DNA of 64,000 nt from a bacterium (GTDB lineage Bacteria > Patescibacteriota > Saccharimonadia > Saccharimonadales > Saccharimonadaceae), in NCBI GenBank assembly GCA_004561445.1, contig SFVX01000001.1, positions 318,266-382,265 on the forward strand, written 5' to 3'. Below are positions 28,870-50,146 of this stretch, in pieces. A program made the position numbers and the translations under genes. Below the pieces are notes generated by a model. That model was not told the origin of the DNA. It saw nothing but the letters and a program-made list of their open reading frames with translations, and searched no databases. Within the stretch, counting starts at the first letter, position 1. Each line of letters begins with the position of its first letter.

Positions 28870-28908
28870 CTTTGTATAATAAGGGTAAGAAAAGGAGGTA
28901 TAAGGGAG

Positions 28909-30312: not shown

Positions 30313-30322
30313 AGCCCTTCTA

Positions 30323-30587
30323 TGTGGAAAACTTGTTGAAAACTACGTTTTTTGGCCTAATTTTGGTGGAAAACTTGAGCAAAAAGCCGTAGAAAAGTGC
30401 GTGCAAAATACGTGGAAACAAAATGTGCAAAAAATGAATTGGTGGAAAAAATCACAATTAAAACCTATAGCGAATGTTAAAAAGCAAAGTTTTACACGAG
30501 TTTTACCTAATAAATTGAACAATTATTTGCACAAATGGAAACGGTGGCTCTTCCCGAGAAAAAAGGAGGTTTTGCACATTTTCCACA
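30323..30587. promoter_or_regulatory. DnaA-box cluster in the dnaA-dnaN spacer
   Basis: TGTGGAAAA 30323, gGTGGAAAA 30365 and 30441, cGTGGAAAc 30411, TTTTCCACA 30579. Confidence 0.6.
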
Positions 30588-30636
30588 GAGTCTACTAATA
30601 CTACTACTAAATATATAAATAAAGGAGCTTATAAAA

Positions 30637-31743: not shown

Positions 31744-31750
31744 GAGTCTT

Positions 31751-32770: not shown

Positions 32771-32814
32771 ATATTTTGGTTTTAAGTGTTGTAAAAAATA
32801 AGTAAAATTATTTT

Positions 32815-32856
32815 TGTGGAAAAGTTTTGTGCAAAACTATATAGATATGTGGAAAA
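32815..32856. promoter_or_regulatory. two perfect DnaA-box 9-mers after recF
   Basis: TGTGGAAAA at 32815 and 32848, same orientation, 33 bp apart. Confidence 0.5.
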
Positions 32857-32904: not shown

Positions 32905-33843
32905 TTATAGCTGATTGCCGGCTATAATAACTTCTTTTGGTACGCCTGGCATATTGTGAGTAGTTAGATATGGTTGTGGATATTCGACGATTTGCCAAGT
33001 ATTACCCTGCTTTTTTAGAACGATACGGTAATGAGCAAGAAGTAAATCTTGATCGAAATTGTATTCTTGGATAGTGGTAACGTAATATTCGCCGATTTCC
33101 TGACCTTCACTGACGAGTTTGCTGTTTTCGCCTGATGGGTAACTTTCATTAATGAAAACTTGGGGATTGGAAGCGGTGCTAGCGACTGGGGCTAGGTATG
33201 GGTTATTATTGCCCGAGAAGAAGATTTTATAGGCGGTAAGGTCGTCGTCTTTGCCATAGGTTTTAAGTTTATTTATAGCGGCATCAAGATAAATATCTTT
33301 GGACTTGATATTAATAACTGGGCGTGAGCCTTCTTCCTCATAGTCGTAACTGATGGAATAAAGCGAACTATTGAATGGGAGATGGTTTAAAATAGGGTAT
33401 TTTTCTTTGGTGCGGAGGCCTTCTTCATTAAGATAGACGCCGACGCGACCTTCAACCTCAGTAAATTCCATTTTATGCTTTTCGAGATAAGTTTTTCCTT
33501 CGTCGTCGGAGGCACTAAGGGTACCAAGAAGCTTATTGTGGTCATTATCGATAGTAACCTGTTTTTTAATAGATTCAAAATGATCAAATTTTACTTCAAG
33601 TTCATAATTGCCTGGTGTGATGTAGGAGGTGGATTTATTTTTGATTTTTGTGCCGTTAAGGGTGACTTCGGCGCTATAAGGTGCAAAATAAATATCGGTA
33701 CGGATTTTTCCGGCGCGACTAATGAGGGTGACGACGGAATAAAAAATTGCGATGATTACAAAAAGCCCAAGTAAAAGAAAAGTGAGTTTTTGGCCTTTTG
33801 TAAGATTGTTTTTAATTGTGTTTTGCTTTTTCATATTTACCAT
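32905..33843 (-). CDS. hypothetical bitopic membrane protein (beta-rich ectodomain), T4SS-locus associated
   Basis: 312 aa with one N-terminal TM; overlaps the hydrolase gene by 7 nt. Confidence 0.5.
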   Translation of the reverse strand: MVNMKKQNTIKNNLTKGQKLTFLLLGLFVIIAIFYSVVTLISRAGKIRTDIYFAPYSAEVTLNGTKIKNKSTSYITPGNYELEVKFDHFESIKKQVTIDNDHNKLLGTLSASDDEGKTYLEKHKMEFTEVEGRVGVYLNEEGLRTKEKYPILNHLPFNSSLYSISYDYEEEGSRPVINIKSKDIYLDAAINKLKTYGKDDDLTAYKIFFSGNNNPYLAPVASTASNPQVFINESYPSGENSKLVSEGQEIGEYYVTTIQEYNFDQDLLLAHYRIVLKKQGNTWQIVEYPQPYLTTHNMPGVPKEVIIAGNQL

Positions 33844-36029
33844 CCGTATTTTGCTTTAAAAGTTGACCAAGAGACGCCTTTTTCGACGATGTAAATCCTG
33901 GCGGTGCTACTGGAACCGTATGGGGCTTTATTGTTATCGGAAGGATTTGGAACGTCGTGGAAGATGTCTAAGTCATAATCGCCATCGATCTTCCCTGCTC
34001 CAGTGTCGGTAATGAGGAAATATTTACCGTTGGCGTAGGAGGCTTCGCCGGTAGCTTGAGTTTGGACATAGACGACGGTGCCAAAATCTAGATGGCTACT
34101 AGCGGCTTGGCCTGGAGCGAGTTTGCCATCGTTATAACCGCTGGCATTCTTGCCGGCGTATCCGCCATTTTCGGAGGCGGCGGCGCTATAGAAAGTGACG
34201 TGATGATCTTTAAGTTTTGTTGCGCCAGTTGGAACGGTGTTTGAGACGGTGCCAGAAACGGAGTTGGTATCACTAGAGGTAGTTTCGTATGGATTAAAAT
34301 TTGGATTACGATACCAACGGACAATGGCGCCATTACCAAAGAGAAGATCCTCTTTGCCGGCCATAGGGGCGCGACCGGAGCCGCTGGTTGAATAGGAGGC
34401 GCTAGCAATATTACTGTCGAAGCCGCCAATTTCGCCGACATAAATGAAGGTGTGGCCGCTTGAAAAAGCGACGTCGCCTGGCTGAAGGATACTAGTATCG
34501 ACGCGGGTGCCGGCGGAACTATTGAGAAGTTCCCAGTTATGCGATTTTACCCAAGCTTCTTGAGTATCAGTGCCACCTTTGCCGTCGTTGTAATTTGGTT
34601 CAAGGCCAGAGTTTTGTACAAGAATAGTAACGAAGCCGCCGCAGTCGATACCCGGCACGCCAGCGACGGAGCCGCCGACATAGCGACCTTCGCTGATGGA
34701 TTGAGTGACAGCTTTGGCGTAGTCTGGCATGCGATCATGCCATGGGGCGCTGTGGTAGGTTGGCCAAGCATAGCCTTTGACGAGAGCCTGAAATTCGCCG
34801 TTGACGCTACACCCGTTAGCGTTAGTGTTGCTATTAATAGCCTTAAAGATAGTCTCAGCAAAAAGTTCAGCGCCGGCTTGGTTTGGGTGAATATTATCGC
34901 TAGCAAGATAAAGACCTGGGTCTTGATTTACGGTCTCGGCCCAGTCGGCGATGATGATGTTGGAATTATTTTTTGCGAGTTCTTTAAAATGAGTATTATT
35001 AGTATCGTAAGTGGTGTTTTTGCCGGAATAATTGGTGACAAAAACAATATTATGTTCTGCCCCAAGGAGATTGACTACTTCGTCGATAGCAGCAGCGGAA
35101 AGATTTGGCGAATTGGTGCCAAGTGCAAAGACGACGGTCTTTTTGAAAGTACTTTTGCCGTTTTGGACGATTTGGACACCTTCGCTCCAGGGGCGACTGA
35201 CGCGAGCATTAATGTTGCTAGCGGTGAGGTCTGGGAATTTTTTGAGGAGTGCGTCCTGAGCGCCAACGGTAATAGAATCGCCGATAATGGTAATATTCTT
35301 GCCGGTTTCTTCGGCGGCGGAACCATTAGCGACAGAGGTGCCTTTACCGGCGTATTTATCGAAAAATTCTTGTGCAAAATTGCGACGAGCTTCGGTACCT
35401 TGGTAGAGTTGACCGGCGTAAGGCGAATAATATTGAATAGCGGAGTTTCCGCCAACGGCGCGCTCAAAGAGTGTCAAAAAGATTTCGGCAGCTTCTTGAG
35501 GATTGTTGGTTTTTTTGATTTCGTCTTGCCAGTTGAGGTCTTTCTCGGACATAGTGTGCTCGAGCTCGATTTGGAGAATTTTGTCAAAATCTGCCTCAGG
35601 GATGTTTTTGTCGGCGCCGGAAGCCCAATATTCGCTAGAGAGATATTGTTCGAGGCCGGCGTCTTTAATTTTGTTTTGAAGTGCGACACGGCGTCCACCG
35701 CCCCACTGGAAGAGGCCCCAGAAGCTAGAGTTGCTGGCTCTAGTTGGGCCAAGGCCACTCTCGGCCATGCCGTTGCCGAGGAGACCAGCGGTTTGAGCGT
35801 CGTTAAAGCCCTGCTGGATAAAGAAATTCCAGATTTTTTCAGCAGTATCACTGCCTGATAAGGTGGTAGAGCTATTGTTACAATTATCGGCATTTCCAAC
35901 GGGATTATAGTAGTAAATCCCGTTTTTATTGTACATGTCGAGAATTTCATCAGATGGAACGAGAGCGTTGGCCGGAGAGGTAATAATTAGAGCCATCAGG
36001 ATGGCAAAAATACGAGCTAGCTTTTTCAT
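33837..36029 (-). CDS. secreted multi-domain cell-wall hydrolase (lysozyme-like + SGNH + NlpC/P60-like + 3D/DPBB-like)
   Basis: Signal peptide; ...LLGNGMAESGL...WGLFQWGGGRR...; ...IIGDSITVG...DNIHPN...; ...GIDCGGFV...GHTFIYVG...; ...ITDTGAGKIDGDYDLDIF... Confidence 0.8.
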   Translation of the reverse strand: MKKLARIFAILMALIITSPANALVPSDEILDMYNKNGIYYYNPVGNADNCNNSSTTLSGSDTAEKIWNFFIQQGFNDAQTAGLLGNGMAESGLGPTRASNSSFWGLFQWGGGRRVALQNKIKDAGLEQYLSSEYWASGADKNIPEADFDKILQIELEHTMSEKDLNWQDEIKKTNNPQEAAEIFLTLFERAVGGNSAIQYYSPYAGQLYQGTEARRNFAQEFFDKYAGKGTSVANGSAAEETGKNITIIGDSITVGAQDALLKKFPDLTASNINARVSRPWSEGVQIVQNGKSTFKKTVVFALGTNSPNLSAAAIDEVVNLLGAEHNIVFVTNYSGKNTTYDTNNTHFKELAKNNSNIIIADWAETVNQDPGLYLASDNIHPNQAGAELFAETIFKAINSNTNANGCSVNGEFQALVKGYAWPTYHSAPWHDRMPDYAKAVTQSISEGRYVGGSVAGVPGIDCGGFVTILVQNSGLEPNYNDGKGGTDTQEAWVKSHNWELLNSSAGTRVDTSILQPGDVAFSSGHTFIYVGEIGGFDSNIASASYSTSGSGRAPMAGKEDLLFGNGAIVRWYRNPNFNPYETTSSDTNSVSGTVSNTVPTGATKLKDHHVTFYSAAASENGGYAGKNASGYNDGKLAPGQAASSHLDFGTVVYVQTQATGEASYANGKYFLITDTGAGKIDGDYDLDIFHDVPNPSDNNKAPYGSSSTARIYIVEKGVSWSTFKAKYGW

Positions 36030-38803: not shown

Positions 38804-38813
38804 AGATGTCTTT

Positions 38814-38822
38814 ATTTTACCA
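38814..38822 (-). promoter_or_regulatory. extended -10 TGgTAAAAT, 10 nt upstream of ATG 38803
   Basis: Read on the - strand; follows the hairpin downstream of virB4; no SD. Confidence 0.45.
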
Positions 38823-38848
38823 TATTTTAGCTTAAAAGTCGAATGCGT

Positions 38849-38879
38849 AAAAATACCGGCTAGGTGTTTTTAGCCGGTA
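38849..38879 (-). terminator. terminator-like hairpin between virB4 and the 925-aa gene
   Basis: Stem taccggcta/tagccggta followed by TTTTT on the - strand. Confidence 0.5.
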
Positions 38880-38886
38880 CTTTAAG

Positions 38887-40689
38887 CTATCTTTTATTTG
38901 AGACTGGATTGGTTGTGATGAGACTTTCTTCGGTGTCGGAAGCCACGATTTGAATGTGGACATGGTTTTGACCAGCAAAGAAGAGGCCTTGTCCAACTGG
39001 GAAGTTAGAAAGACGTTTGCGCTCCTCGTCAGTGAGCTTGAAGACATCAGATAGAACATCAACGGCGGAAGCAGATTGTTTAAGGAGTAATTGCATGGAA
39101 GAGTTTGCAACGATAGCGCGTCCCATTTTGCTACTCATAAAGTCCTCAACATCCTGCGTAATGGTAGTAAGACCGAGGTAGTATTTACGAGCGCGCTTGG
39201 CGAGGCTGAAGAGGAACTTGGCGGAATCTTCGTATTGCATGAGCTGCCAGGCCTCATCAACAATGAGGAGGCGAGGTTTCTTTTGAGCACGAGTAATGTT
39301 CCAAATATGGTTCAGGACGATATACATAGCCACTGGACGAAGTTCATCTTCGAGGTCGCGAATATTAAAGACGACCATTTGGTTGTTGATATCTATATTG
39401 CTCTGCTGGGAAAAGATACCAGCAAAAGTACCAGTAGTATATTTACGTAAACGCTGTGCAAGAGATGGACCGGTGCCACCCATATGAAGCAAAGTATCGA
39501 AAAGATTCATGATGGTTGGTGGAGTGGCGTTGTGAGTAAGTGGATCGTTAGTAATACCGGCACGAGCGTAAGTGTCGATGAGGGCCTGATCAAGATCCGC
39601 TTCTTCGTTTGGACTTAAAGCTGCAGCGGCGCCGCCGAGCATGAGACGGAAAAGACCGTGAAGAGTGGCGAGATTGGCACGCAAGGCGTCATTAGCTTCT
39701 TCTGGATCAACGACTTTTGGCAGGTCGAAAGGATTAATACGGACGTCGGAGCTAAGACTGAGACGAACATAAGCGCCACCAACGGCGTCGGCAAGTTTTT
39801 GATACTCATTTTCTGGGTCGATAATAAGAATTTCGGTGCCGAGCATCATAGAACGCAAGGCTTCGAGCTTGACGGTGAAAGATTTACCAGAACCAGATTT
39901 CGCGAAGACAACCATGTTGGCGTTTTCGAGCGAGAAACGATCAAAAATAACGAGGCCATTATTGTGCATATTAATGCCGTAGAGAATACCTTTTTCCTGC
40001 GTGAGGTCGGCGGAGGTGAATGGAAAACTGGTAGAAATAGCGCCAGTATTCATATTGCGGCGGATTTGGAGTTGGTCGGTACACTGAGGCATAGTAGAAT
40101 TCATGCCCTGCTCTTGCTGCGAAGTAGCGACTTTTGAGAAGACCATTTGCTGACCGAAGATATTTTCGATTTTGTGCTGAACAAACTGAAGTTCATCGAG
40201 CGAATCGGCGTAGATTGTAACGTAGAGGCCATAACGGAAGAATTTTTCGGCACCGACTTGGAGTTGATCGCGAAGGTCTTCAGCATCGGAAATAGCAGCT
40301 TCGAGCTCTGGATCACGAACTTTTCCCTTTTCGGAGTTGACGGACATGCTAGCTTCGAGCTGAGTCACCTTCTTGGTGAGGTTTTTCATGATGATACCAG
40401 TATCAACTGGATAGATGTACATGGAAATATCGAGAACTTCATCGATATTAATGATGGAGCTTAGCCAGCCAGTATAAAGCATACGAGGATAGCCGTAGAC
40501 ATAAATCGTACGGCCGTATTTGGTGCCAAGGCGGAAATAGTCGGAATTAATTTCGATAGATGAAGGCGAAATAAGGTCGCGAAGTGTAGTAATACCGGTT
40601 TCAAATGCTTTTTGAATTTCGACTTCTTCTTGAAGCTGGGATTGCGCGGCGATGTCGGCGGCGCTGAGTTGTTGATTTTTCTTGGCCAT
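38887..40689 (-). CDS. virB4: VirB4-family type IV secretion ATPase (Gram-positive-type, 600 aa)
   Basis: Walker A FAKSGSGKSF and Walker B LLIVDEAWQL. The N-terminal ...YGRTIYVYGYPRMLYTGWL... resembles TcpF/PrgJ/ConE-type VirB4. Confidence 0.85.
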   Translation of the reverse strand: MAKKNQQLSAADIAAQSQLQEEVEIQKAFETGITTLRDLISPSSIEINSDYFRLGTKYGRTIYVYGYPRMLYTGWLSSIINIDEVLDISMYIYPVDTGIIMKNLTKKVTQLEASMSVNSEKGKVRDPELEAAISDAEDLRDQLQVGAEKFFRYGLYVTIYADSLDELQFVQHKIENIFGQQMVFSKVATSQQEQGMNSTMPQCTDQLQIRRNMNTGAISTSFPFTSADLTQEKGILYGINMHNNGLVIFDRFSLENANMVVFAKSGSGKSFTVKLEALRSMMLGTEILIIDPENEYQKLADAVGGAYVRLSLSSDVRINPFDLPKVVDPEEANDALRANLATLHGLFRLMLGGAAAALSPNEEADLDQALIDTYARAGITNDPLTHNATPPTIMNLFDTLLHMGGTGPSLAQRLRKYTTGTFAGIFSQQSNIDINNQMVVFNIRDLEDELRPVAMYIVLNHIWNITRAQKKPRLLIVDEAWQLMQYEDSAKFLFSLAKRARKYYLGLTTITQDVEDFMSSKMGRAIVANSSMQLLLKQSASAVDVLSDVFKLTDEERKRLSNFPVGQGLFFAGQNHVHIQIVASDTEESLITTNPVSNKR

Positions 40690-40692
40690 AAA

Positions 40693-41532
40693 TTACTCCT
40701 CCATTCCTTTCTCGCCTTTTTTAACGTAGAGGTGGGCGAGTTTATTGAAGTCGCCGAGTGGTTCACGGACGGCAGTGTCTGGGTTATTAAAGTTGTAGTA
40801 GAGAGTGCTAAGTTCGCGAGTATTGAGACGAACAGCATGGATGCCCATCTGGAAGAGACCAGAGACGACGGTTTCGACGCGGTTATTGACTTCGGTGACG
40901 GCCTTATCGTAAGTAGCGCGGTCGATGCGGGTGATGCCTGGACCTTTGTTCTTACCGACAGCGGCAAAGAAATTCTTATTCTGCTCGACGGCTTGTTCGG
41001 CTTCCTTTGAGGTGTAATACGGAATTATGATAAAGAAAGATTTATCCATAATGTTGGCTTCTTGAGAGAGAATGTCGATGAAGTTGATGTAATCATCCAT
41101 GAGAACACCAAGAAGCATATTGTCGTTATTGCGGCGAAGCTCGGAAAGGCGATCGATGTATGGGCCAATATCAACGCGCTGAGAGCGGATAAGAATCTGA
41201 GTGGCAAAAGTGAGGGAGTTGAGGAAGTTTTGGTAAGAATACTCGACGCCTTCGCGTTCGGCTTCAGACATAAGATCGAAGTTGATGGATTTACAGGCAA
41301 CTACGGCGCGGAAAGAACCATCTTTCATAATAACCATAGAATCGCGAAGCTCTGAGATTAAAAGCGTGCCCTGAGTAGAATTTGGGTTTTGTGGAACTGG
41401 CGCTGGTGCGGCTGGGGCTTGCGATGAAATAGTTTGCCCTGGTATTGGCGCTGCGCCAGGTGTTGGCGTGGCGCCATTCATAGGCATGCCGGTTTGTGGA
41501 TATTGATTTGGATAGGCTTGGTTTGGCTGCAT
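40693..41532 (-). CDS. hypothetical T4SS accessory protein (P/Q-rich N-terminus; possible VirB4/TraC N-terminal-like domain)
   Basis: 279 aa, 3 nt upstream of virB4. ...KDGSFRAVVACKSINFDLMSEAEREGVEYSYQNFLNSLTFATQILIRSQRVDI... pattern. Confidence 0.5.
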   Translation of the reverse strand: MQPNQAYPNQYPQTGMPMNGATPTPGAAPIPGQTISSQAPAAPAPVPQNPNSTQGTLLISELRDSMVIMKDGSFRAVVACKSINFDLMSEAEREGVEYSYQNFLNSLTFATQILIRSQRVDIGPYIDRLSELRRNNDNMLLGVLMDDYINFIDILSQEANIMDKSFFIIIPYYTSKEAEQAVEQNKNFFAAVGKNKGPGITRIDRATYDKAVTEVNNRVETVVSGLFQMGIHAVRLNTRELSTLYYNFNNPDTAVREPLGDFNKLAHLYVKKGEKGMEE

Positions 41533-41541
41533 ATTTGTTCC

Positions 41542-42609
41542 TTAATGTAATGAAATGTATACTTCCCCGTCGTTCTTTTTGTTGATACGTTTAGCTTGTT
41601 GAGCGATAGTTTCAATTGAGAAATCTGAATTGTTGGCGAGATCGATAATGTCCTGGCTTGGTTCAGATTTTGGCTCTGGCGTAGGTTCTGGAGCTGGTTT
41701 TTGGGGTATTTCTTCGGCGATAGGCTGAACAACTACAGAATTGATCTGAGATGTTTCTGGCTCTTGTGGCTCAGTAACTGGAGTTGGTAGTGGTGGTGCA
41801 ACTGGCTGGATTGGCGCAGGATTAATTGGAGCAGAAGTTGGAACGCTGCCTGGAGTTGGTAGATTTGCAGTTGGCGTAAGGTTTGGCGAAAATGGCGCAA
41901 CTGGTGTAGCGGAAAATTGGCCAGGCGCGACAGTGACTTGGCTTGCGGAAGTGATATTTGGCCGAGCGGACTCCGGCTCATTGAATTTATTAATAGTAGC
42001 ACCAGCGGTGCTGAGTGAACGAGAATTATCGATAGCTTGGCGCATCTGAGCGACGAGTTCGTCATGGCGACTATCGGTGTTGTTTTGAAGAGTTTGGGAG
42101 ATATTGTAGCTTTGTGGAGTCTCAAAAATATCTTGAACAGTGCTAGCTTCGGCGTTGATTTCGTCGCTGAGTTGGTTGGTTACGTTGCCCTTAATGGCAT
42201 AACCTTCGGTATCAACAATGTCGGCAAGGAAAGAGAGGCGACGGGAGGCTTCTTCTTCGTTAAGGTTCTTAGTACGGTTTTCTTCAACTTTTTTAGGAGC
42301 GGTAATGACGATAGTGGATTCGGGCTCGCCTGGTTCCCAGAGGCGCTTGTGAGGCTTAGTGTAGTAGGAGATAACAGCGGCGAGATAAGTTTCCATAGGC
42401 TGGTCTTTTTTGAGCGGTAAGGCGAGTATCATCAAAAAGATAATAAAAGGTACTGGAATAATAACTAGAACTGGAAAGATTTTGAAAAGCAAAAAAGCTA
42501 CACCCGCGAGTGCGAAGGCTATCAAAAGGTATATGAACTGACGAAAAGTGAACGGTCCGAGGAGTTTATCTTCTGCCTCGACGTCCTGAGGTACCTTATA
42601 CTGAGCCAT
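41542..42609 (-). CDS. PrgI-family (VirB3-like) membrane protein with long Pro-rich C-terminal extension
   Basis: N-terminus YKVPQDVEAEDKLLGPFTFRQFIYLL followed by two TM helices; about 260 extra residues rich in P/T/Q. Confidence 0.6.
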   Translation of the reverse strand: MAQYKVPQDVEAEDKLLGPFTFRQFIYLLIAFALAGVAFLLFKIFPVLVIIPVPFIIFLMILALPLKKDQPMETYLAAVISYYTKPHKRLWEPGEPESTIVITAPKKVEENRTKNLNEEEASRRLSFLADIVDTEGYAIKGNVTNQLSDEINAEASTVQDIFETPQSYNISQTLQNNTDSRHDELVAQMRQAIDNSRSLSTAGATINKFNEPESARPNITSASQVTVAPGQFSATPVAPFSPNLTPTANLPTPGSVPTSAPINPAPIQPVAPPLPTPVTEPQEPETSQINSVVVQPIAEEIPQKPAPEPTPEPKSEPSQDIIDLANNSDFSIETIAQQAKRINKKNDGEVYISLH

Positions 42610-42618
42610 ATATTATTT

Positions 42619-42627
42619 ATAATAGCA
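42619..42627 (-). promoter_or_regulatory. extended -10 TGcTATTAT, 9 nt upstream of ATG 42609
   Basis: Read on the - strand in the 67-nt gap after the VirB6-like gene; no SD. Confidence 0.45.
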
Positions 42628-42676
42628 TAATCGCCATTTATTTTTAACTCAGTATAAGGCTGTAGTTGGATAATAA

Positions 42677-45373
42677 TTAGTCGAGGTCGATGCCGAGCAT
42701 CTTGCGGACTTCTGGGTTCATAGTAGCACGCTGCGAGGTTGCAGATTGCTTGTTGAGGGCGGTGCGCTGGTGTTCGAAGATCTCATAGAATTCGCGACTG
42801 ACGACAGAACCTTCGGCGGTCGTAACGGTATCGCCAGGATTAACATACTGCAAGAATCCATCAAGAGCTTTCATAGTGCCACTCTTTGAGGTAACGAGCT
42901 GACCAGCTGACATATCTTTGAGATAGCTAATAACGTTGTCTTTAATAGCGTCACGGTTGTTATTAAAGAATGCAATCTCTTGAGCATTAGCGGTGCCAGC
43001 TTGGATTTTATCTAAACCACCAGTGAGTAAGGAGTTGATAGTAGCAAGTGTTTCACCATCGACGGTACCGGAAGCGGCAGTTGAGCGGATCTGTTTCATG
43101 GATAGACCAAGGTTGTGTGGATCGCTAATAAGACCCTGGACGCGAAGATCTTGGATAGATTTCCAGAAGGTGCGGTCTTGGGTTTTACCAATGCCTGGAT
43201 CACCGATGTTTGGAATAAGCGTATCGATTCTTACTTTCGCAGCGGCGTTAGCGTCAATATCGCCAGCGAGTGGGGTGCCTTTAATATAGTCGGAAAGATT
43301 GACGTAGGCTTCGATACTTTTCCCTGCTCCGTTCATACCACGGCGCATCATTAAGGCTTTACTCCATGACCATAGCAAGGCGTCGTCTTTCTTCATAGTA
43401 ATAAGAGTATCGGCGAGTTGCTTTTGGACGCGAATATCGTTGGAAATATCGCCAGAGTGTTTGACGAGGACATTTGTAATAGCATCGTAGTCGCCGCGTT
43501 TTGCCATAACTTCGACGGCGGCGGTCATAGAGTTGTAATCTTTAGTCTGGAAGGATTTTTCGAGGTTTTTGCTAATTTCTGGACCAGCAAGCATATCGTT
43601 GTAAAGCTCGGAGTACATACTCTTACTCTCAGCGTCGGCTTTGCGTTTGGCGGCAATGGCATCAGAAAGTACAGCGTTCATGGCGCGGCTAGTAGTGTTT
43701 TGATAGGCCTCACGCTGAGCGTCGGTCATATTAGCGACGGCCGCAGCATCTTGATGTTGATAGTTGAAGCTCTTTGCGACTTGGCGACTAAGTTCAGAGT
43801 CGGCATCTTGGAGACCGGTTTGAATGGTATCGGCGCGACGTTTGAGGTTTTCCATATTAACGACACGCTGGCGACTGGCGTTGATGGCGCTTTGAGCGAT
43901 AGCTTTACTATAACCAGCATTTATGGCATCTACGCGAGCTGCATCGCGAGAGCGGATGTGCGCAGTATCATTTTTGTCGTAACCTTCATCCATGTCGGTA
44001 TTGAATTTAGTAATTATCTCTCCAGCGTTCATGCGAAGTTGAGCGTTGTTGTAGTAGCGCAAACCACGATTATTGAGCTGACCTTTGGAATTGTAGTGGC
44101 TTTGACGATGTTTGGCATTTGCTCTATCGTCGGCGGTTTTCTGCGCATCAGCAAGATCATTGGCGCGGTTAACATTGCGCTGATTGAGATATTGAGCGAG
44201 GCGGGTGCTTGGGCGGTAGCTAGTGCTACTAAGCTGGCGAGCCTTGGCAAGACGACGATTTTCAGCGGAAATACCACGAAGGCGAGTATCGGCTGGTCTG
44301 GCGGCACGGTGGACCATGCCGTCAATGCGGCCAAGGACGGTACCGCTCATACGTAGTAGCGGAATAGACATAAATAGAGGTAGGACCATAACGGCAACGC
44401 CAAGAACGACGCCAAGCCAGTTGGTGGCAGAAGTAATCATAACAAGGCCGGCGAGATTAGAAGCGCCGTAAAGGATGCTAAACATTGGATAAAAGACTAA
44501 CATGCTAATAAAAAGGCTAGTCCATTTTTTGAACCATTTCTCGGTGTTTGGCAAGAGATAGGCGACGAATGCGAGTGGCGAGATCATGACGAGTAAAAGA
44601 ATGAGGGCTTGACGAGCAGCCATAGTGATGAGTGCAGAAATAATGGCGAGTGCGCCAGATAGAATAATAGGAATAAGTAGCCAAATAAGACCGGTGAAGC
44701 CACCGGTGATAGCGAGTGCACCAATAGTGCCAGCTGTGCCGATACCGAGAATCGTAGCGACGATTCCAGCGACGGATGTGCTAGCAGCGGCATCACTGAC
44801 GGAGCCGTTAGCAAGTGCATTTTCGCCGATAGCATCAAAGATAGATCTAAAACCGCCACCCACGATGTTACTGAGATCGACGGCAATAGCACAAATAATA
44901 TAGCTTAGATTGAGAAGGATAGCGGCAATAATAAGTCGCGGGAGCATGCGCTTGATACCGTAATTACTAATCCCCACCCCAGTCATCTGGGAGTAGATAA
45001 TGATAATAAAGACGATAATGAAAGCAATGTTGGCGAGATTACGGAGATATTCCCAGACAACATGAATTGGGGCGTCCTGCTCCATCGAAACTGGTTCGAC
45101 ATTAATAAGCTCGTTTAGAATACCATAAGCGCCATCGATGATATTGGCAAGGAAAGAAGTTCCTGGGCAGACAAGCCAGCCAATACCACCAACTTCGTCA
45201 TAACAGGTAGTTTGTTCTTGATTCTCTTCTTCGGTTTGTTCTTCTTCGGAAGTATCAGGAGTGGGATTAGTATCGTTATCTGATGGGACGGCAAAAACTG
45301 GACCGCTGATTAGGAAGAGGCTGAATGCGGCCGCGAGCAGTATTATACCTAAGCGTTTTAGATACTTACCCAT
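42677..45373 (-). CDS. VirB6/TrbL-like polytopic membrane protein with large hydrophilic C-terminal domain
   Basis: Start revised to ATG 45373 (MGKYLKRLG..., signal peptide). The ORF-track TTG start is itself the -35 box. Acidic linker, about 8 TM helices, then a roughly 500-aa soluble domain. Confidence 0.55.
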   Translation of the reverse strand: MGKYLKRLGIILLAAAFSLFLISGPVFAVPSDNDTNPTPDTSEEEQTEEENQEQTTCYDEVGGIGWLVCPGTSFLANIIDGAYGILNELINVEPVSMEQDAPIHVVWEYLRNLANIAFIIVFIIIIYSQMTGVGISNYGIKRMLPRLIIAAILLNLSYIICAIAVDLSNIVGGGFRSIFDAIGENALANGSVSDAAASTSVAGIVATILGIGTAGTIGALAITGGFTGLIWLLIPIILSGALAIISALITMAARQALILLLVMISPLAFVAYLLPNTEKWFKKWTSLFISMLVFYPMFSILYGASNLAGLVMITSATNWLGVVLGVAVMVLPLFMSIPLLRMSGTVLGRIDGMVHRAARPADTRLRGISAENRRLAKARQLSSTSYRPSTRLAQYLNQRNVNRANDLADAQKTADDRANAKHRQSHYNSKGQLNNRGLRYYNNAQLRMNAGEIITKFNTDMDEGYDKNDTAHIRSRDAARVDAINAGYSKAIAQSAINASRQRVVNMENLKRRADTIQTGLQDADSELSRQVAKSFNYQHQDAAAVANMTDAQREAYQNTTSRAMNAVLSDAIAAKRKADAESKSMYSELYNDMLAGPEISKNLEKSFQTKDYNSMTAAVEVMAKRGDYDAITNVLVKHSGDISNDIRVQKQLADTLITMKKDDALLWSWSKALMMRRGMNGAGKSIEAYVNLSDYIKGTPLAGDIDANAAAKVRIDTLIPNIGDPGIGKTQDRTFWKSIQDLRVQGLISDPHNLGLSMKQIRSTAASGTVDGETLATINSLLTGGLDKIQAGTANAQEIAFFNNNRDAIKDNVISYLKDMSAGQLVTSKSGTMKALDGFLQYVNPGDTVTTAEGSVVSREFYEIFEHQRTALNKQSATSQRATMNPEVRKMLGIDLD

Positions 45374-45383
45374 AGCATTTCTA

Positions 45384-45412
45384 ATTATATCACACATAAG
45401 CTTTTTTGTCAA
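45384..45412 (-). promoter_or_regulatory. consensus promoter TTGACA-17-TATAAT, 10 nt upstream of ATG 45373
   Basis: Both hexamers are perfect on the - strand; no SD. Confidence 0.65.
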
Positions 45413-45467
45413 TAATATTTAAGGGGTCAAGGATAGAATGCTTAATATTATATATAATTTTAGGATT

Positions 45468-45495
45468 TTGAGTGAGAGGGTTTCTGTTATATAAT
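45468..45495 (+). promoter_or_regulatory. promoter TTGAGT-16-TATAAT for the pilin operon
   Basis: About 28-nt leader with SD GAGGA. The 7-bp inverted repeat ctgttat/ataacag (45484-45516) spans the -10 box and leader. Confidence 0.5.
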
Positions 45496-45523
45496 ATAAG
45501 CAACTGAAATAACAGAGGAAAAA

Positions 45524-45964
45524 ATGCGCAACAAAATGAACAAATACTTAAAAATCGCTGCGATTGCTGTTTTTGTGGTGTTGGCGGCTGGTTTTGTGAC
45601 GACCGTAGCGACGAGTCCGGCGATGGCGGAATGTGAGACGGCGGTTTTGCCCGATGAATGGTGCGATGGCAACAATGATATTATGGATGTCGTAAAATTT
45701 GTGGTCGGCATGCTAGCTGGTGGTGTCACTTTTATTGGCATTGTTGGTATCGTTATATGTGGCGTAATGTATCTTACGGCGCGCGACAATGAGGCACAGG
45801 TTGCAAAGGCGAAGAAGCGTTTGATAGATGTAATTATTGGTGTGGTGATTTGGGTATTATTTGCGTTTGGAGCGAATGGTATTTTGACGCTTTTGGTGCC
45901 AAAGGCGGAAGGAGTTGAAATTACTGAAATGCAAACTCAGATAATAGATAAGGAAATTGCGTGA
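45524..45964 (+). CDS. T4SS pilin-like protein (TrbC/VirB2-type hairpin), divergent paralog 1
   Basis: Signal peptide ...SPAMA, Cys pair, then two TM helices flanking YLTARDNEAQVAKAKKRL (degenerate motif). Confidence 0.6.
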   Translation: MRNKMNKYLKIAAIAVFVVLAAGFVTTVATSPAMAECETAVLPDEWCDGNNDIMDVVKFVVGMLAGGVTFIGIVGIVICGVMYLTARDNEAQVAKAKKRLIDVIIGVVIWVLFAFGANGILTLLVPKAEGVEITEMQTQIIDKEIA

Positions 45965-46626
45965 TGAAAAAAGTTTTAATCGCTTTTGTAATGCTTTGCT
46001 CCGTGATGCTTGGCTTGGTTATGCCTACGAACCAAGCGGCGGCTTTTAATACGAATTGTACTACGAGGTTCTTGGGTTTACCGGCCTGGTATGATGGATT
46101 GGTTAATACGAGTACCTGCGAGATAGAAAGCCCGGCAAAAGATGAAGCTAAGCTTAGGCAGTTTATCTGGACGGTGGTTGCGAATATTATGGCGCTCGTG
46201 ATGGGTGTGGTTGGATATCTAGCAATCGCATTTGTGATATTTGGTGGTTTTCAGTATTTGACGTCTTCTGGTGATCCTGGAAGAGCCGCCAAAGGTAAGA
46301 AAACGATTACAAATGCGCTTATTGGTACAGTGATTTGTTTGTTAGCTTCAGCGGTTTCGAGTGCAATTTCTGGTATTATAAGGGGCGCTACGAATGGTAC
46401 GGGCACCGCTGGGCAATTCTTTGCTAATCTGTTAAATACTGTGTTTGTTTGGGCGGGAATTTTGTGCGTTATAATGATTGTGATTGCTGGCATAGAGTAT
46501 GCGATTAGTATTGGCAATCCAGGCAAAGTTTCGAAAGCTAAGAACACGATTATGTATGCTGCGATTGGACTTGTAATTATTATTGCTGCAGCTGCGATTG
46601 TTAACTTTGTAGTAGGAGCTGTTTAG
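45964..46626 (+). CDS. tandem double T4SS pilin-like protein, paralog 2
   Basis: Two hairpin modules: ...GGFQYLTSSGDPGRAAKGKKTITNALIG... and ...AGIEYAISIGNPGKVSKAKNTIMYAAIG... ATG 45964 overlaps the upstream TGA; an alternative GTG lies at 45961. Confidence 0.7.
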   Translation: MKKVLIAFVMLCSVMLGLVMPTNQAAAFNTNCTTRFLGLPAWYDGLVNTSTCEIESPAKDEAKLRQFIWTVVANIMALVMGVVGYLAIAFVIFGGFQYLTSSGDPGRAAKGKKTITNALIGTVICLLASAVSSAISGIIRGATNGTGTAGQFFANLLNTVFVWAGILCVIMIVIAGIEYAISIGNPGKVSKAKNTIMYAAIGLVIIIAAAAIVNFVVGAV

Positions 46627-47004
46627 ATGAAGAAGGTATTTTTAGTAATTGCGATATTATTGTCTGGTTTTATGGTAATTAATATGCCAGTGAAAATTTA
46701 TGCAAAAGACTGTGGGGGTGTCCAAGTTGCAGACAAGGCTAATTGCCCTGGTGAGTTTACGGTTCCTGGTGATGGAGAAGGGTCACTTAAGAATTCCGTT
46801 CAAAAAGCCCTGAGTGCTATTTTTGGGATTCTTGGTATTATCGCGGCAGTAGTAATTATTATTGCGGGCGTTCAGTATATGATTTCGGCGGGCGATCCGG
46901 GAAAAGTTGCAACTGCAAAAAAGGCAATTCTCTATGCGATTATCGGACTTATCGTATCTTTGTCGGCGTATGCTATAACAAACTTTATTTTGGGAGCATT
47001 ATAA
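46627..47004 (+). CDS. T4SS pilin-like protein, paralog 3
   Basis: Signal peptide, Cys pair, ...AGVQYMISAGDPGKVATAKKAILYAIIGL...NFILGAL. Confidence 0.7.
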   Translation: MKKVFLVIAILLSGFMVINMPVKIYAKDCGGVQVADKANCPGEFTVPGDGEGSLKNSVQKALSAIFGILGIIAAVVIIIAGVQYMISAGDPGKVATAKKAILYAIIGLIVSLSAYAITNFILGAL

Positions 47005-47008
47005 ATAA

Positions 47009-47308
47009 ATGAATTTATATAAGATAATAGGTTTAGGCATTAAAGACCAGGTTACTGGTGCGGCGAATGGCACTACGGCTCAATCTATTGTTGGCAATGT
47101 AGTGAAGGCGGTTCTTGGCATTGCTGGCGTAATTGCAGTAGTAGTAATTATCATTGGTGGTGTCTTTTATATGACGGCGCAAGGTGATCCGGGAAAAATT
47201 ACAAAGGCCAAGAACTGTATCTTCGGTGGCGTGATTGGGCTCGTGATTTGTTTGTTAGCTTTTGCGATTGTAACTTTTGCGATGAATGCCTTTGCAGGAA
47301 ATATATAA
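47009..47308 (+). CDS. T4SS pilin-like protein, paralog 4 (no obvious signal peptide)
   Basis: 99 aa with ...GGVFYMTAQGDPGKITKAKNCIFGGVIGL...; the N-terminus MNLYKIIGLGIKDQV is not hydrophobic. Confidence 0.6.
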   Translation: MNLYKIIGLGIKDQVTGAANGTTAQSIVGNVVKAVLGIAGVIAVVVIIIGGVFYMTAQGDPGKITKAKNCIFGGVIGLVICLLAFAIVTFAMNAFAGNI

Positions 47309-47312
47309 TCTA

Positions 47313-47340
47313 TCGACAAAAGCTGAAGTTATGGTAAAAT
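47313..47340 (+). promoter_or_regulatory. promoter TCGACA-16-(TGg)TAAAAT for pilin paralog 5
   Basis: Extended -10; leader carries SD AAGGAG. Confidence 0.45.
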
Positions 47341-47377
47341 TAAACTAAAGTTCTTTGGAATTAAAAAAGGAGAAAAA

Positions 47378-47881
47378 ATGAACAAACTAAATAAAATCTT
47401 GAAAGCTGGTGTCTTTGCGGCTTTCTTGGCGGCTGTGATTGCTGGTCCAGTAATGGCAGCAGATTACTCTTGTATTACTGGTGGTACTGGTAAGTATCCA
47501 AACCTTTCTACTAGCGGTGGCGCCGGTACGGAATATCCAAACAAATGTGTCACGATTAATGACGGTGGTAATTATATTACTATCTATGGTAAAGACGCGG
47601 GCGCATGTGCACAGGCCGGTTCTCTTACTAGTGATCCAGATGCTTGTAATAGCCAAGATTTGAATGAGATTATTCATACAATTATTAATACCGTAATCTT
47701 TGTAGTCGGTATGCTCGCCGTAATTATGATTATTCTTGGTGGTGTTAACTATGCAACTTCTCAGGGTGATCCAAACAAGGTTAATAAAGCTAAGAGTACT
47801 ATTATGTATGGTATTATCGGTCTTGTGATTTGTCTCTTGGCGTTTGCAATTGTGAACTTCGTCCTTCAAGCTTTGGCTTAA
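47378..47881 (+). CDS. T4SS pilin-like protein, paralog 5 (4-Cys variable domain)
   Basis: Signal peptide ...GPVMA, four Cys, ...GGVNYATSQGDPNKVNKAKSTIMYGIIGL...NFVLQALA. Confidence 0.7.
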   Translation: MNKLNKILKAGVFAAFLAAVIAGPVMAADYSCITGGTGKYPNLSTSGGAGTEYPNKCVTINDGGNYITIYGKDAGACAQAGSLTSDPDACNSQDLNEIIHTIINTVIFVVGMLAVIMIILGGVNYATSQGDPNKVNKAKSTIMYGIIGLVICLLAFAIVNFVLQALA

Positions 47882-47899
47882 AGATAAGCGATTAATAAA

Positions 47900-47927
47900 T
47901 ACCCTGCTCTATTGCGGGGTATTTTTA
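47900..47927 (+). terminator. intrinsic terminator after pilin paralog 5
   Basis: Stem taccctgc/gcggggta (one G-U pair) followed by TTTTT. Confidence 0.55.
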
Positions 47928-47941
47928 TATGCTTAATATTA

Positions 47942-47950
47942 TGTTAAAAT
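47942..47950 (+). promoter_or_regulatory. extended -10 TGtTAAAAT for pilin paralog 6
   Basis: About 22 nt upstream of ATG 47973, with SD AAGGAG in between. Confidence 0.45.
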
Positions 47951-47972
47951 ATCTTTAGACAAAGGAGAAAAA

Positions 47973-48350
47973 ATGAAAGAAGTAATTAAAAAGATTGGTC
48001 TTGGAATCGCGAGCGTAGCGATGGTTGCTTGCGGTATGACTGCAATTGCGCCGAGTGTATATGCAAGCCCAGTTACTGAGGCTCAAGGTGGCGTATCTGA
48101 TATTACGCCAGCTGGCACAAATACAGACTTGATGGATATTATTAAGACTATCCTCAATACCGTCTTTGTAGTTGTAGGTATTGTAGCGGTTGTTATGATT
48201 ATCCTTGGTGGTATTAATTATGCAACTTCTCAGGGTGATCCTGGAAAGGCCTCAAAGGCTAAGAATACGATTATGTATGCGATTATTGGTCTAGTCGTTA
48301 CTCTACTTGCCTTTGCGGTTGTAAACTTTGTATTAAGCGCACTTGCCTAG
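47973..48350 (+). CDS. T4SS pilin-like protein, paralog 6
   Basis: Signal peptide ...PSVYA, ...GGINYATSQGDPGKASKAKNTIMYAIIGL...NFVLSALA. Confidence 0.7.
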   Translation: MKEVIKKIGLGIASVAMVACGMTAIAPSVYASPVTEAQGGVSDITPAGTNTDLMDIIKTILNTVFVVVGIVAVVMIILGGINYATSQGDPGKASKAKNTIMYAIIGLVVTLLAFAVVNFVLSALA

Positions 48351-48368
48351 GGGAAAATGATTTTAAAA

Positions 48369-48398
48369 ATATCTCACCAACTTGGTGAGATATTTTTT
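48369..48398 (+). terminator. intrinsic terminator after pilin paralog 6
   Basis: 11-bp stem atatctcacca/tggtgagatat followed by TTTTTT. Confidence 0.7.
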
Positions 48399-48445
48399 AG
48401 GTGAGTGCTTTAGGGCTTTGTATTTAGAATCTTTGAACTGTGAAC

Positions 48446-48476
48446 TAAAATATCTCCGCAGGATATGCGGAGATAT
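48446..48476 (-). terminator. intrinsic terminator after hsp20
   Basis: Stem tatctccgca/tgcggagata followed by TTTT on the - strand. Confidence 0.6.
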
Positions 48477-48480
48477 TGGA

Positions 48481-48993
48481 TTAGTTGACGAGAATGCGTT
48501 TTTTTGCTTCGGTCTTCTCTTTTTCGAAGGAGACGGTAAGGACGCCATCCTTAAGGACTGCTTCGACGCCATCTTCTTTGACCTGAACTGGTAAAGCGAT
48601 AGTGCGGCTAAATTCGCCCCAGTAGCATTCTTGAATGTGCCATTGAACGACTTTATCGTCTTCGCTGCCGCTAAGAACGCCAGAGATGGTTAAGATATTG
48701 TCTGAGATAGAAACATCGAGATCTTTGCGTTCAATACCTGCGGTGCGGGCTTTGATGATAAGTTTGTCTGCAGTTTCATAGACGTCAACAGCGAGCTGAC
48801 CTGGGATATCCTCGTCTTCATCCCAATCGTCGTCAGCGACTTCTTCTTCGTAGATTTGCTCTGTGACTGCGTTTTGAGTGTCGACAGGAGTATCCACCGG
48901 TTCCTCTTCGACTAACATGTCGCCACTATTGTCATCCATGAAGGCAGCGGCGAGCTCGTCATCTAAGCTCATCTCGTCTTGTTTTCGAGCCAT
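48481..48993 (-). CDS. Hsp20/alpha-crystallin family small heat-shock protein
   Basis: Acidic N-terminus followed by the ACD: ...DVYETADKLIIKARTAGIERKDLDVSI...GEFSRTIALP...AVLKDGVLTVSFEK. Confidence 0.9.
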   Translation of the reverse strand: MARKQDEMSLDDELAAAFMDDNSGDMLVEEEPVDTPVDTQNAVTEQIYEEEVADDDWDEDEDIPGQLAVDVYETADKLIIKARTAGIERKDLDVSISDNILTISGVLSGSEDDKVVQWHIQECYWGEFSRTIALPVQVKEDGVEAVLKDGVLTVSFEKEKTEAKKRILVN

Positions 48994-49091
48994 AATAAAT
49001 ATTTTCCTCCACTATTTACACTCTTAAGCTTTATTATAGAGAGCGTTTCTAATAAAATCAAGAAAAAAGAGGAGGTGTTGTAAAAAATACA

Positions 49092-49742
49092 ATGAATATT
49101 AGTCTGGCGGAGTTGTTTTGTCCTCACCACTGTATTTCTTGCGGTAAAATTGGCGGAATTTTGTGTGAGTGTTGTAAAAAATACATTTTAGATGAACGAA
49201 AGCTGAATTGTCTAAAATGTGGTGCGGAATTAATACATGAAAAATGCGTAAGATGCGACGCATTGCCCTGTTTGCAATTTTATGTAGGAAAGCGTAAGGG
49301 TGCACTTAAGAGTTTAATTAATAATTATAAATATAATTCGGTGCGAGCGTGCGGAGATGTACTAGCAGAGCTGTTGGCGGAATGTATTAATATCGAGTCA
49401 GCGGTTGTCGTTCCCCTGCCAACGATAGGAAAGCATGTGCGGGAGCGTGGCTTTGACCATACAAAGTTGTTGGCACGGAAATTAGTAAGACTAAAAGAAT
49501 GAAAATATGAATGCGTGATAGAGCGCGCAAATAATACAGTGCAGGTGGGTGCATCGAACGAAAAGCGCAAAGTACAGGCGAAGGAAGCGTATATTGTGAG
49601 ACAAAAACTCGATCCGCTTAAAACATATATACTACTTGATGACGTTTGGACGACGGGCAGTAGTATGATGGCGGCATATGAAAAAATCTTCCAGGCGGGG
49701 GCCCGGAAGATTGTGATCGCAGTAATTGCTAAGAGTGGATAA
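49092..49742 (+). pseudogene. comFC: ComF-family phosphoribosyltransferase-like protein interrupted by one in-frame TGA (49500-49502)
   Basis: The ORFs 49092-49502 and 49515-49742 are in the same frame. N-terminal Cys4 zinc ribbon, ...RERGFDH..., C-terminal PRT motif YILLDDVWTTGSS. Confidence 0.75.
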
Positions 49743-49744
49743 GA

Positions 49745-50146
49745 TTAAGCGGTAGTTCCACCAACAGCATTGATGACAAAGTTTACGATGGCGTAAGCTA
49801 GCAAGGCGATGATGAGGCCGATAATCGCGTACATGATGGTGTTTTTGGCGTCGGTAACTTTGGAGCTGTTGCCGCCGGAAATAACGTAACGGAAGCCGCC
49901 ATAGATAAGCATGATAACAGAAATGATACCAACAGCGTAAAGAATAGTGTTTACAATCTGAGTAAAGACGCCGTTGACGCCGATAAGTTCGGCTGGCATA
50001 CCGTTGCCACGAGCCATCTCTGCTCCGGCCTGGGCTGGATTTTTGAGATCGGCCATACCGCTAGCCATTACACGTCCAGCAAATAGTACGACGGCGGTGC
50101 TGGCGCCGGTGAGGATTTGGCTGGTTTTGACAATAAGTTTCTTCAT
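49745..50146 (-). CDS. T4SS pilin-like protein, paralog 7 (opposite strand)
   Basis: Signal peptide ...GRVMA, ...GGFRYVISGGNSSKVTDAKNTIMYAIIGL...NFVINAV. Confidence 0.7.
   Translation of the reverse strand: MKKLIVKTSQILTGASTAVVLFAGRVMASGMADLKNPAQAGAEMARGNGMPAELIGVNGVFTQIVNTILYAVGIISVIMLIYGGFRYVISGGNSSKVTDAKNTIMYAIIGLIIALLAYAIVNFVINAVGGTTA

Follow-up and report, generated by a model that had tools for sequence, protein, structure and literature searches.

Is the type IV secretion-like locus beside the replication genes of a gut Saccharibacterium a mobile conjugative element or a resident machine of the chromosome, and what would such a machine do? The locus lies at 32905-50146 of a 64-kb stretch of contig SFVX01000001.1 (GCA_004561445.1, positions 318,266 to 382,265, forward strand), hereafter called the window, to which all coordinates refer. 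The original prediction, made from the letters alone, preferred a non-conjugative apparatus of an episymbiont to a mobile element and saw in it a combination of two styles, a Gram-positive-type core and a VirB2-type pilin array. The first part of this reading was borne out by the present analysis and the second was not. We propose, with considerable confidence, that the locus is a Patescibacteria-type chromosomal type IV secretion system (T4SS) of a gut Saccharibacterium (Candidatus Nanosyncoccaceae), that SEML1_0005-0019 of Southlakia epibionticum are its syntenic orthologues, and that it acts at the contact with the host. The locus has already been described (PMC10633639, PMC12102498); this is a rediscovery, and the published picture is unchanged.

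All fourteen genes that had been placed in 32905-50146 were recovered there from the open reading frame (ORF) list and its translations. Seven co-directional genes on the minus strand encode the VirB6-like, PrgI/VirB3, TrsD-like, VirB4, 925-amino-acid (925-aa), wall hydrolase and PEGA proteins, and this block is divergent from six VirB2-type pilin genes on the plus strand. Beyond the pilin array follow, in order, hsp20 (minus), comF (plus), a seventh pilin (minus) and tRNA-Ser at 50257. The parts of the machine are listed here.

42677..45373, minus strand: VirB6/TrbL-like polytopic membrane protein (the mechanical ORF runs to 45412)
41542..42609, minus strand: PrgI/VirB3-like protein, 355 aa, PF12666
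40693..41532, minus strand: soluble TrsD-like protein, 279 aa, a detached VirB4 N-terminal domain
38887..40689, minus strand: VirB4 ATPase, 600 aa, of the CD1110 family (mating-pair formation type FATA, MPF-FATA), NF045971
36026..38803, minus strand: 925-aa polytopic membrane protein with no annotated family, at the position of SEML1_0007
33837..36029, minus strand: secreted multi-domain cell-wall enzyme, 730 aa, four modules
32905..33843, minus strand: bitopic PEGA-domain anchor protein, 312 aa, counterpart of SEML1_0005
45524..48350, plus strand: six VirB2-type pilin genes, PF18895
49745..50146, minus strand: seventh pilin, PF18895 at 43.9 bits, with a ratio of nonsynonymous to synonymous polymorphism (pN/pS) of 0.02

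The VirB4 protein scored 387 bits against NF045971 (conju_CD1110), for which the cutoff is 325, and it also matched P-loop_TraG and AAA_10. Its translation has the predicted GSGKS and DEAW motifs, in a Walker A sequence FAKSGSGKS and a Walker B sequence LIVDEAW. A profile built with its orthologues matched the Thermoanaerobacter VirB4 structure (PDB 4ag5) at 4.4e-51, and the closest VirB4 genes in the plasmid collection were from Bacillota and Actinomycetota, with 30-39% identity. VirB4 also resembled the CedB and CedD models weakly, with scores far below cutoff. The PrgI/VirB3-like call held as well: the protein matched PF12666 in Pfam at 8.5e-14 and 52.3 bits (cutoff 27), and it has two transmembrane helices followed by a long Pro/Thr-rich C-terminal extension.

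The VirB4 match covers positions 172-732 of the 752 in NF045971, so that the usual N-terminal domain is missing. The 279-aa protein encoded between VirB4 and PrgI had been called an accessory protein; it is present, and its identity proved to be that of a TrsD-like protein corresponding to the N-terminal domain of VirB4. It matched NF041427 (TrsD) at 1.2e-7, below cutoff, as well as positions 18-178 of the VirB4 model TIGR00929 and positions 109-253 of NF045975, and a precomputed match to PF26593 (TraC-like) is on record. In hhalign it paired with the 274-aa protein beside the VirB4 of Pontibacillus with a probability of 99.3% (E 9e-21). NF045975, a model of 894 positions for a fused VirB4 of the Mbov_0397 family, is collinear with PrgI (aligned to its positions 19-166), the 279-aa protein and VirB4, in that order. 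No relationship was found by hhalign between the TrsD-like protein and the window's own VirB4, as expected because that VirB4 lacks the N-terminal domain. We infer that the TrsD-like protein supplies the absent domain in trans.

The assignment of the large protein upstream of PrgI as VirB6/TrbL-like was only partly upheld. An N-terminal signal or anchor segment is followed by some seven transmembrane segments within residues 129-341, and the C-terminal domain, about 570 aa long, is helical. The AlphaFold2 model had a mean predicted local distance difference test (pLDDT) score of 77, and the top Foldseek match in the PDB was R388 TrwI/VirB6 (8rt9_F), with a probability of 0.99 but an E value of 0.06 and a template modelling score (TMt) of 0.38; 8rtd_L and 7o3v were also matched. 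PF19590 (TrbL_3) is precomputed as a weak match for this protein and is present for most homologues, whereas our Pfam scan of the protein gave no match, TrbL_3 included. The protein is likely, but not proven, to be a VirB6. The mechanical ORF encodes 911 aa, and the gene probably starts at 45373 and encodes 898 aa, because a perfect promoter lies inside the 911-aa ORF and Met14 of that ORF, at 45373, is nearly invariant among homologues. A promoter and a promoter-like site were found in the region between the divergent operons, which is 99-100% identical in seven other strains.

45384..45412, minus strand: sigma-70-type consensus promoter, TTGACA-17-TGnTATAAT, matching 12 of 12 consensus positions with an extended -10 element
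45468..45495, plus strand: promoter-like site TTGAGT-16 nt-TATAAT for the pilin operon, a consensus match only

From the -10 element of the first promoter it is 10 nt to the ATG at 45373, which has no Shine-Dalgarno sequence; with so short a distance, the transcript of the minus-strand operon seems to be nearly leaderless. The site on the plus strand is followed by a GAGGA ribosome-binding site and the ATG of the first pilin at 45524.

The pilin genes of the array are as follows.

45524-45964, plus strand: pilin 1, PF18895 and also PF04956 (TrbC)
45961-46626, plus strand: pilin 2, a tandem double pilin, PF18895 and NF045849
46627-47004, plus strand: pilin 3, PF18895 and NF045849
47009-47308, plus strand: pilin 4, PF18895 and NF045849
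47378-47881, plus strand: pilin 5, PF18895 and NF045849
47973-48350, plus strand: pilin 6, PF18895 and NF045849

All seven pilins, the distant one included, were above the cutoff of PF18895 (T4SS_pilin), in agreement with the earlier calls, and five of the seven (pilins 2-6) matched NF045849, a curated NCBIfam family named "Mbov_0395 family pilin-like conjugal transfer protein", a name that refers to integrative conjugative elements (ICEs). Pairwise identity within the array was 22-67%. Most pilins of the array have a signal peptide and a two-helix hairpin, while pilin 4 has the hairpin only and no hydrophobic leader. Overall they have the features of VirB2/TrbC proteins, namely small size, a leader, two hydrophobic helices, a short charged loop and a match to a hidden Markov model.

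A near gene-for-gene counterpart has been published. The apparent T4SS of Southlakia epibionticum ML1, SEML1_0006-0019, was reported to be most like Gram-positive conjugative systems, with essential pilin genes inside the cluster and no recognisable coupling or relaxase proteins (Wang et al. 2023, Cell; PMC10633639). The gene order there is dnaA, dnaN, recF, SEML1_0004, 0005 (PEGA, essential), 0006 (lysozymes and a Cys peptidase), 0007 (1113 aa), 0008 (VirB4), 0009, 0010 (PrgI), 0011, 0012 (NTF2-like), 0013 (TrbL/VirB6-like), 0014-0019 (pilins), 0020 (hsp20), 0021 (comF), tRNA-Ser and the pilin 0024 (PMC10633639). Compared through the published gene and annotation tables, not by sequence alignment, the window follows SEML1_0001-0024 nearly gene for gene, with a protein of about 290 aa by VirB4, six divergent pilins, an extra pilin near tRNA-Ser and neither a relaxase nor a type IV coupling protein (T4CP) in either cluster. 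The differences are that upstream of PrgI a single large polytopic protein is encoded in the window, where S. epibionticum has two (SEML1_0011 and 0013), that the window has no NTF2-like gene (SEML1_0012), and that a single 312-aa PEGA protein stands where S. epibionticum has 0004 and 0005, small exported proteins. In addition, the window's hydrolase carries no second lysozyme but SGNH and 3D modules instead, its 925-aa protein is without the C-terminal peptidase of the 1113-aa SEML1_0007, and its extra pilin comes before tRNA-Ser and not after. Transposon sequencing (Tn-seq) during growth with a host, which the original prediction had suggested, has already been done in this relative, and the cluster, pilins included, was essential for growth on the host (PMC10633639). 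Essential scores were given to SEML1_0005-0011 and 0013-0020, hsp20 (SEML1_0020) among them, while comF (SEML1_0021) and the pilin SEML1_0024 were non-essential (PMC10633639).

The same kind of system was described across Patescibacteria in a survey of 2,474 virB4 genes, which reported MPF-FATA affinity with TrsD, PrgI and VirB6, arrays of 2-11 PF18895/PF04956 pilin genes that are common in Saccharimonadia, no relaxases and a location near dnaA (Quinonero-Coronel et al. 2025; PMC12102498). A T4CP homologue was found in many Patescibacteria, and whether the pilins were co-opted from diderm systems was left open (PMC12102498). A 2025 review restates points of Wang 2023 and Quinonero-Coronel 2025. 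The window has the VirB4 of this clade, the adjacent TrsD, PrgI and VirB6 genes, the pilin array, no relaxase or T4CP, and the position near dnaA, with VirB6 as its weakest point; no material difference from the surveyed systems was observed.

Conservation of the locus bears on whether it is mobile. VirB4 is 100% identical to that of a Candidatus Nanosyncoccaceae metagenome-assembled genome (JBJFFO010000003.1, a 735-kb contig), the GTDB representative; entries for this exact sequence were found in 409 blocks of the assembly collection, and relatives occur in at least 591 GTDB species. Its identity to the VirB4 proteins of 79 further genomes, almost all of which carry the label Saccharibacteria, is 82-92%. 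The synteny comparison suggested earlier showed that the order pilin 7, comF, hsp20, pilins, VirB6, PrgI, TrsD, VirB4, 925-aa protein, hydrolase, PEGA, recF, dnaN and dnaA recurs in related species, and that the T4SS gene order beside dnaA-dnaN-recF recurs across dozens of Saccharibacteria species. All 17 strains sampled carried the block at this site, as did related species. Median identities, taken over one set of 79 other species, were 84% for VirB4 and 72% for the TrsD-like protein, compared with 47% for DnaA and 57% for both DnaN and RecF, and they were about 33-35% for the 925-aa, hydrolase and PEGA proteins. Within the species, pN/pS was 0.01-0.11 for every component and 0.01 for VirB4; all genes of the locus are under strong purifying selection within the species. 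VirB4 (38887-40689) was also far more constrained than the adjacent replication proteins, with 28909-30312 used for comparison.

The surroundings of the locus agree with what had been described, a block between recF with its DnaA boxes and tRNA-Ser.

32815..32856, minus strand: two DnaA boxes (TTTTCCACA), at 32815 and 32848, between recF and the locus

Nine such boxes are clustered across 26399-32856. GC skew does not change sign at dnaA or at the DnaA-box cluster (26.4-32.9 kb) but is positive to either side of each, and no skew switch marking the presumed origin was seen within the 64-kb window. Thirty-three flanking ORFs of 75 to 856 aa, including every ORF of at least 240 aa in the window, were scanned; they were housekeeping genes or without a family match, and included yidC, dnaA, dnaN, recF, groEL, aminoacyl-tRNA synthetases, Mur ligases, glycosyltransferases and an ABC transporter. 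Among these 33 ORFs no VirD4/T4CP, relaxase, VirB11 or integrase was found, as had been described, and no att-like direct repeats were found in the window. VirB5, VirB7, VirB8, VirB9, VirB10, VirB11 and VirD4 were not detected in the window, and an Rfam scan of it returned three tRNAs and nothing else. One ORF, 55692-56429, was considered as a relaxosome gene and rejected at 18.9 bits against MobC_2 (cutoff 27.5); on reading, its translation resembles a Mur-ligase-type fragment. GC content was dropped as a sign of foreign origin, as the locus has 44-49% GC and other housekeeping stretches of the window are equal.

An ordinary ICE, or a remnant of one, inserted at tRNA-Ser would account for a core of the conjugative MPF-FATA type and for the tRNA-Ser at one end, and conjugative relatives with adjacent T4CP and relaxase genes do exist in Embleya and on Clostridium perfringens pSXP-169_2. 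Yet neither an integrase, a relaxase or a T4CP nor att-like direct repeats flanking the block were found in the 64-kb window, related species and S. epibionticum likewise have the block between recF and tRNA-Ser, VirB4 is more conserved than DnaA with pN/pS at 0.01-0.11 across the components, and the flanks are housekeeping genes. This explanation is effectively refuted, and we give it next to no weight. Because the gene order is kept, selection is strong and no DNA-processing genes or att repeats occur in the 64 kb, the locus is a fixed chromosomal system, that is, a non-mobile T4SS-like apparatus of an episymbiont and not an ICE. On this point the original prediction was right.

Three further products of the minus-strand block would connect the apparatus with the cell wall. 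The hydrolase had been described as having four modules, two of which are solid by profile: a phage-tail-type lysozyme at residues 61-226 (Phage_lysozyme2, 4.3e-23, 82 bits) and an OatA-like SGNH esterase/acetyltransferase at 245-399. The other two, an NlpC/P60-like module at about 457-536 and a 3D domain at about 648-694, were below threshold in Pfam (4e-3 and 6.7e-3), where GDSL_2 was also sub-threshold at 7.9e-5. Against the PDB, the SGNH part matched OatA (5ufy/5ug1) at 5e-14, and phi29 gp13 (3csr) was matched at 0.018. The 592-aa orthologues of close relatives are without the 3D module. The joining of an OatA-like SGNH module to a lysozyme suggests that the predicted hydrolase removes the O-acetyl groups that block lysozyme. 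The 312-aa protein was bitopic as described, with a single N-terminal transmembrane segment at residues 23-41, and a PEGA domain could be added (PF08308, 22.2 bits, cutoff 20.8).

The 925-aa protein had been called an orphan. It has no annotated family, as no match was obtained in Pfam (up to E = 5), in a profile search of PDB sequences or by tblastn of the plasmid collection, but it is not an orphan, since its family spans 1348 representative clusters. Some of these relatives end in CHAP, SGNH or phosphoesterase domains. Structure prediction and Foldseek, proposed earlier for the proteins without a family, gave the weak TrwI resemblance of the VirB6-like protein; the AlphaFold2 model of the 925-aa protein had a pLDDT of 60 and no Foldseek match. 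A role as a second VirB6 was rejected, as hhalign against the 911-aa family gave a probability of only 4.5%. In ICEBs1-like Gram-positive elements a large polytopic protein comes after VirB4. The 925-aa protein was rejected as its counterpart too, as hhalign against the 1050-aa protein of Pontibacillus gave nothing.

The statement that monoderm T4SSs generally lack VirB2 pilins, from which a combination of two styles had been derived, did not stand. It is contradicted by the NF045849 family, by PF18895 pilins next to VirB4 genes in Bacillota, and by a December 2025 preprint in which a VirB2-like protein was essential for pCF10 transfer and such proteins were found in almost all Gram-positive conjugative plasmids. 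The Bacillota VirB4 genes nearest to that of the window have PF18895 pilins beside them: in three clusters of this phylum, taken from the best-matching plasmid records, the pilin genes lie immediately upstream of PrgI or VirB6. These clusters, on megaplasmids of Pontibacillus sp. ALD_SL1 (NZ_CP062975.1, 351362-361354), Aneurinibacillus sp. and Clostridium perfringens (pJFP838A), show a relaxase-less pilin-PrgI-TrsD-VirB4-hydrolase arrangement in the order of the window, with the PF18895 pilins upstream and a split VirB4 with a TrsD-like partner. The Pontibacillus VirB4 is 37% identical to that of the window. They differ in having one or two pilins and not seven, and in lying on a megaplasmid and not at the replication origin (oriC); no sequence relationship was detectable between their VirB6 and large membrane proteins and those of the window. 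The three replicons, of 400-900 kb, are typed as non-mobilizable, with no relaxase or T4CP nearby, and the clusters may be non-conjugative T4SS-like machines of Gram-positive bacteria. The Pontibacillus cluster also has a TrbL-like protein and adjoins flagellar genes, and the Aneurinibacillus and pJFP838A clusters adjoin a prepilin peptidase, a sigma factor and clpX.

Two other types of system resemble the window less closely in gene content. The CD1110-type Bacillota plasmid pSXP-169_2 and the Actinomycetota Embleya plasmid share an NF045971 VirB4, an upstream PrgI, a TrbL-like protein and a large downstream hydrolase, but they carry VirD4 (CD1115) or another T4CP and relaxase genes beside VirB4, their VirB4 keeps the N-terminal domain (about 750-780 aa), and there is no pilin array. 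Diderm systems of the R388/VirB type share VirB2-type pilins, VirB3, VirB4 and, to go by the weak TrwI match, probably a VirB6 fold, but the VirB5, VirB7-VirB11 and VirD4 of that type were not detected in the window. A monoderm rather than diderm origin of the pilins is favoured by the NF045849 membership and the PF18895 neighbours in Bacillota. With the pCF10 preprint added, it is simpler to regard the pilin-bearing layout as native to this monoderm branch. Saccharibacteria then stand apart by an expansion to six or seven pilin paralogues, by a fixed place at oriC and by a cluster that has lost its DNA-processing partners.

Within the species, the pilin array is not uniform.

45820..46960, plus strand: dimorphic pilin cassette of about 1.15 kb, beginning in the 3' end of pilin 1 and reaching into that of pilin 3

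Compared with GCA_030526565.1 and with the GTDB representative, identity in the cassette was 50-83% per 60-nt window, while the flanks were 93-100% identical and the edges sharp. There are two haplotypes of the cassette in the species, the second being present in two of the 17 assemblies sampled; ten extra contigs sampled through pilin 6 were all of haplotype A. The amino-acid changes cluster in the signal peptides or leaders, the N-terminal extensions and the C-terminal tail of pilin 1, and the hairpin cores are nearly identical between haplotypes. The pattern looks like replacement by recombination, or balancing selection. We offer the following only tentatively: pilins 1-3 could form an exchangeable cassette (haplotypes 17-50% apart per 60-nt window, sharp recombination edges, changes in predicted exposed parts) that is swapped in order to alter the host surface, or the phage or immune pressure, met by a T4SS pilus; and the pilin-bearing, relaxase-less layout could have come down intact from a monoderm (Bacillota-type) ancestor instead of being put together out of two T4SS styles.

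A rival reading is that the structure is mainly a pilus for adhesion or host recognition with no translocated substrate, whose pilin paralogues and exchangeable cassette would set the host range. Seven diverged pilins, cassette replacement within the species that is concentrated in predicted exposed parts, and the lack of a coupling protein nearby are in its favour. However, adhesion of Saccharibacteria has already been attributed in the literature to type IV pili, and the presence of a complete VirB3/VirB4/VirB6 translocon, extremely constrained as it is, points to something beyond a fibre. We regard a mainly adhesive function as unlikely; it overlaps with the T4SS acting at host contact and is not exclusive of it.

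Two genes lie between the pilin array and the seventh pilin.

48481..48993, minus strand: hsp20, PF00011 at 1.9e-17
49092..49742, plus strand: comF with an in-frame TGA at 49500-49502

The position of hsp20 between the pilin array and comF is kept in the related loci that were laid out, with a match in 52 of 79 loci. The TGA in comF falls where related species most often have Trp, in an RGWK motif. It was present in all seven assemblies of the species aligned at that codon, and a split into 136-aa and 75-aa products was called in ten further contigs; in one related species a comF stop codon lies a few residues upstream. TGA is the normal stop of 6 of 54 genes in the window. The 79 codons downstream of the TGA had a pN/pS of 0.11 across 17 strains, and because the part past the stop is constrained in this way, comF seems to remain functional, whether by read-through, as a split protein, or with a stop that is very recent. 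It is probably not part of the secretion machine.

A machine for DNA uptake or exchange, like Helicobacter ComB or the Ced system of Sulfolobales, working with the adjacent comF, would fit the location of comF beside hsp20 and the pilins in the related loci examined, the weak similarity of VirB4 to the Ced models, and the inability of Saccharibacteria to make nucleotides that is known from the literature. In S. epibionticum, however, competence needs type IV pili and ComEC, and the window comF has its in-frame stop codon. Because a comEC deletion of S. epibionticum is viable and its comF dispensable while its T4SS is essential, we judge DNA uptake to be very improbable as the function of the locus. 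The two-haplotype cassette and the TGA-bearing comF are the small additions of this work.

The gene content, family membership, synteny, selection and lack of DNA-processing genes in the window are observed. For the T4SS at host contact that we prefer, assembly roles, pilus formation and cargo are drawn by analogy from diderm structures and Gram-positive conjugation, as follows. Two divergent promoters beside oriC would drive a machine operon and a pilin operon. PrgI/VirB3 would anchor a VirB4 hexamer, with the TrsD-like protein providing the VirB4 N-terminal domain in trans. The VirB6-like protein would provide a platform in the membrane, from which a short pilus or conduit of polymerised VirB2-type pilins would be built, by analogy with the VirB6 stalk of R388. 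The 925-aa protein, the lysozyme/SGNH/NlpC-P60/3D enzyme and the PEGA protein may open or remodel peptidoglycan, perhaps O-acetylated, of the own wall, that of the host, or both. The apparatus would then work at the contact between epibiont and host, without conjugative DNA movement, and exported proteins are the leading guess for its substrate.

Several points weigh against this proposal. Essentiality for epibiotic growth is known from S. epibionticum ML1, and here it is strong purifying selection that was observed. For the VirB6 assignment, both the structural match (E 0.06, TM 0.38) and the Pfam hit are weak, and the 925-aa protein is without a recognisable fold. No VirB8-like (NTF2) gene or second VirB6-like gene was seen in the locus, whereas S. 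epibionticum has SEML1_0011-0013. Formation of a pilus in Patescibacteria is argued by analogy, and a T4CP homologue may exist elsewhere in the genome, as the scan covered 64 kb.

Few machines have been shown to be indispensable to epibiotic life in bacteria of the candidate phyla radiation, and the T4SS of Saccharibacteria is among them; with the window comes a further example, from a gut-associated member of the Nanosyncoccaceae that is frequent in public metagenomes. A few leads follow from it. The genes of the machine are among the most conserved of the region, while the parts that cross the wall and the exposed parts of the pilins are variable; and the nearest look-alikes outside Patescibacteria are the pilin-bearing, relaxase-less clusters on Bacillota megaplasmids.

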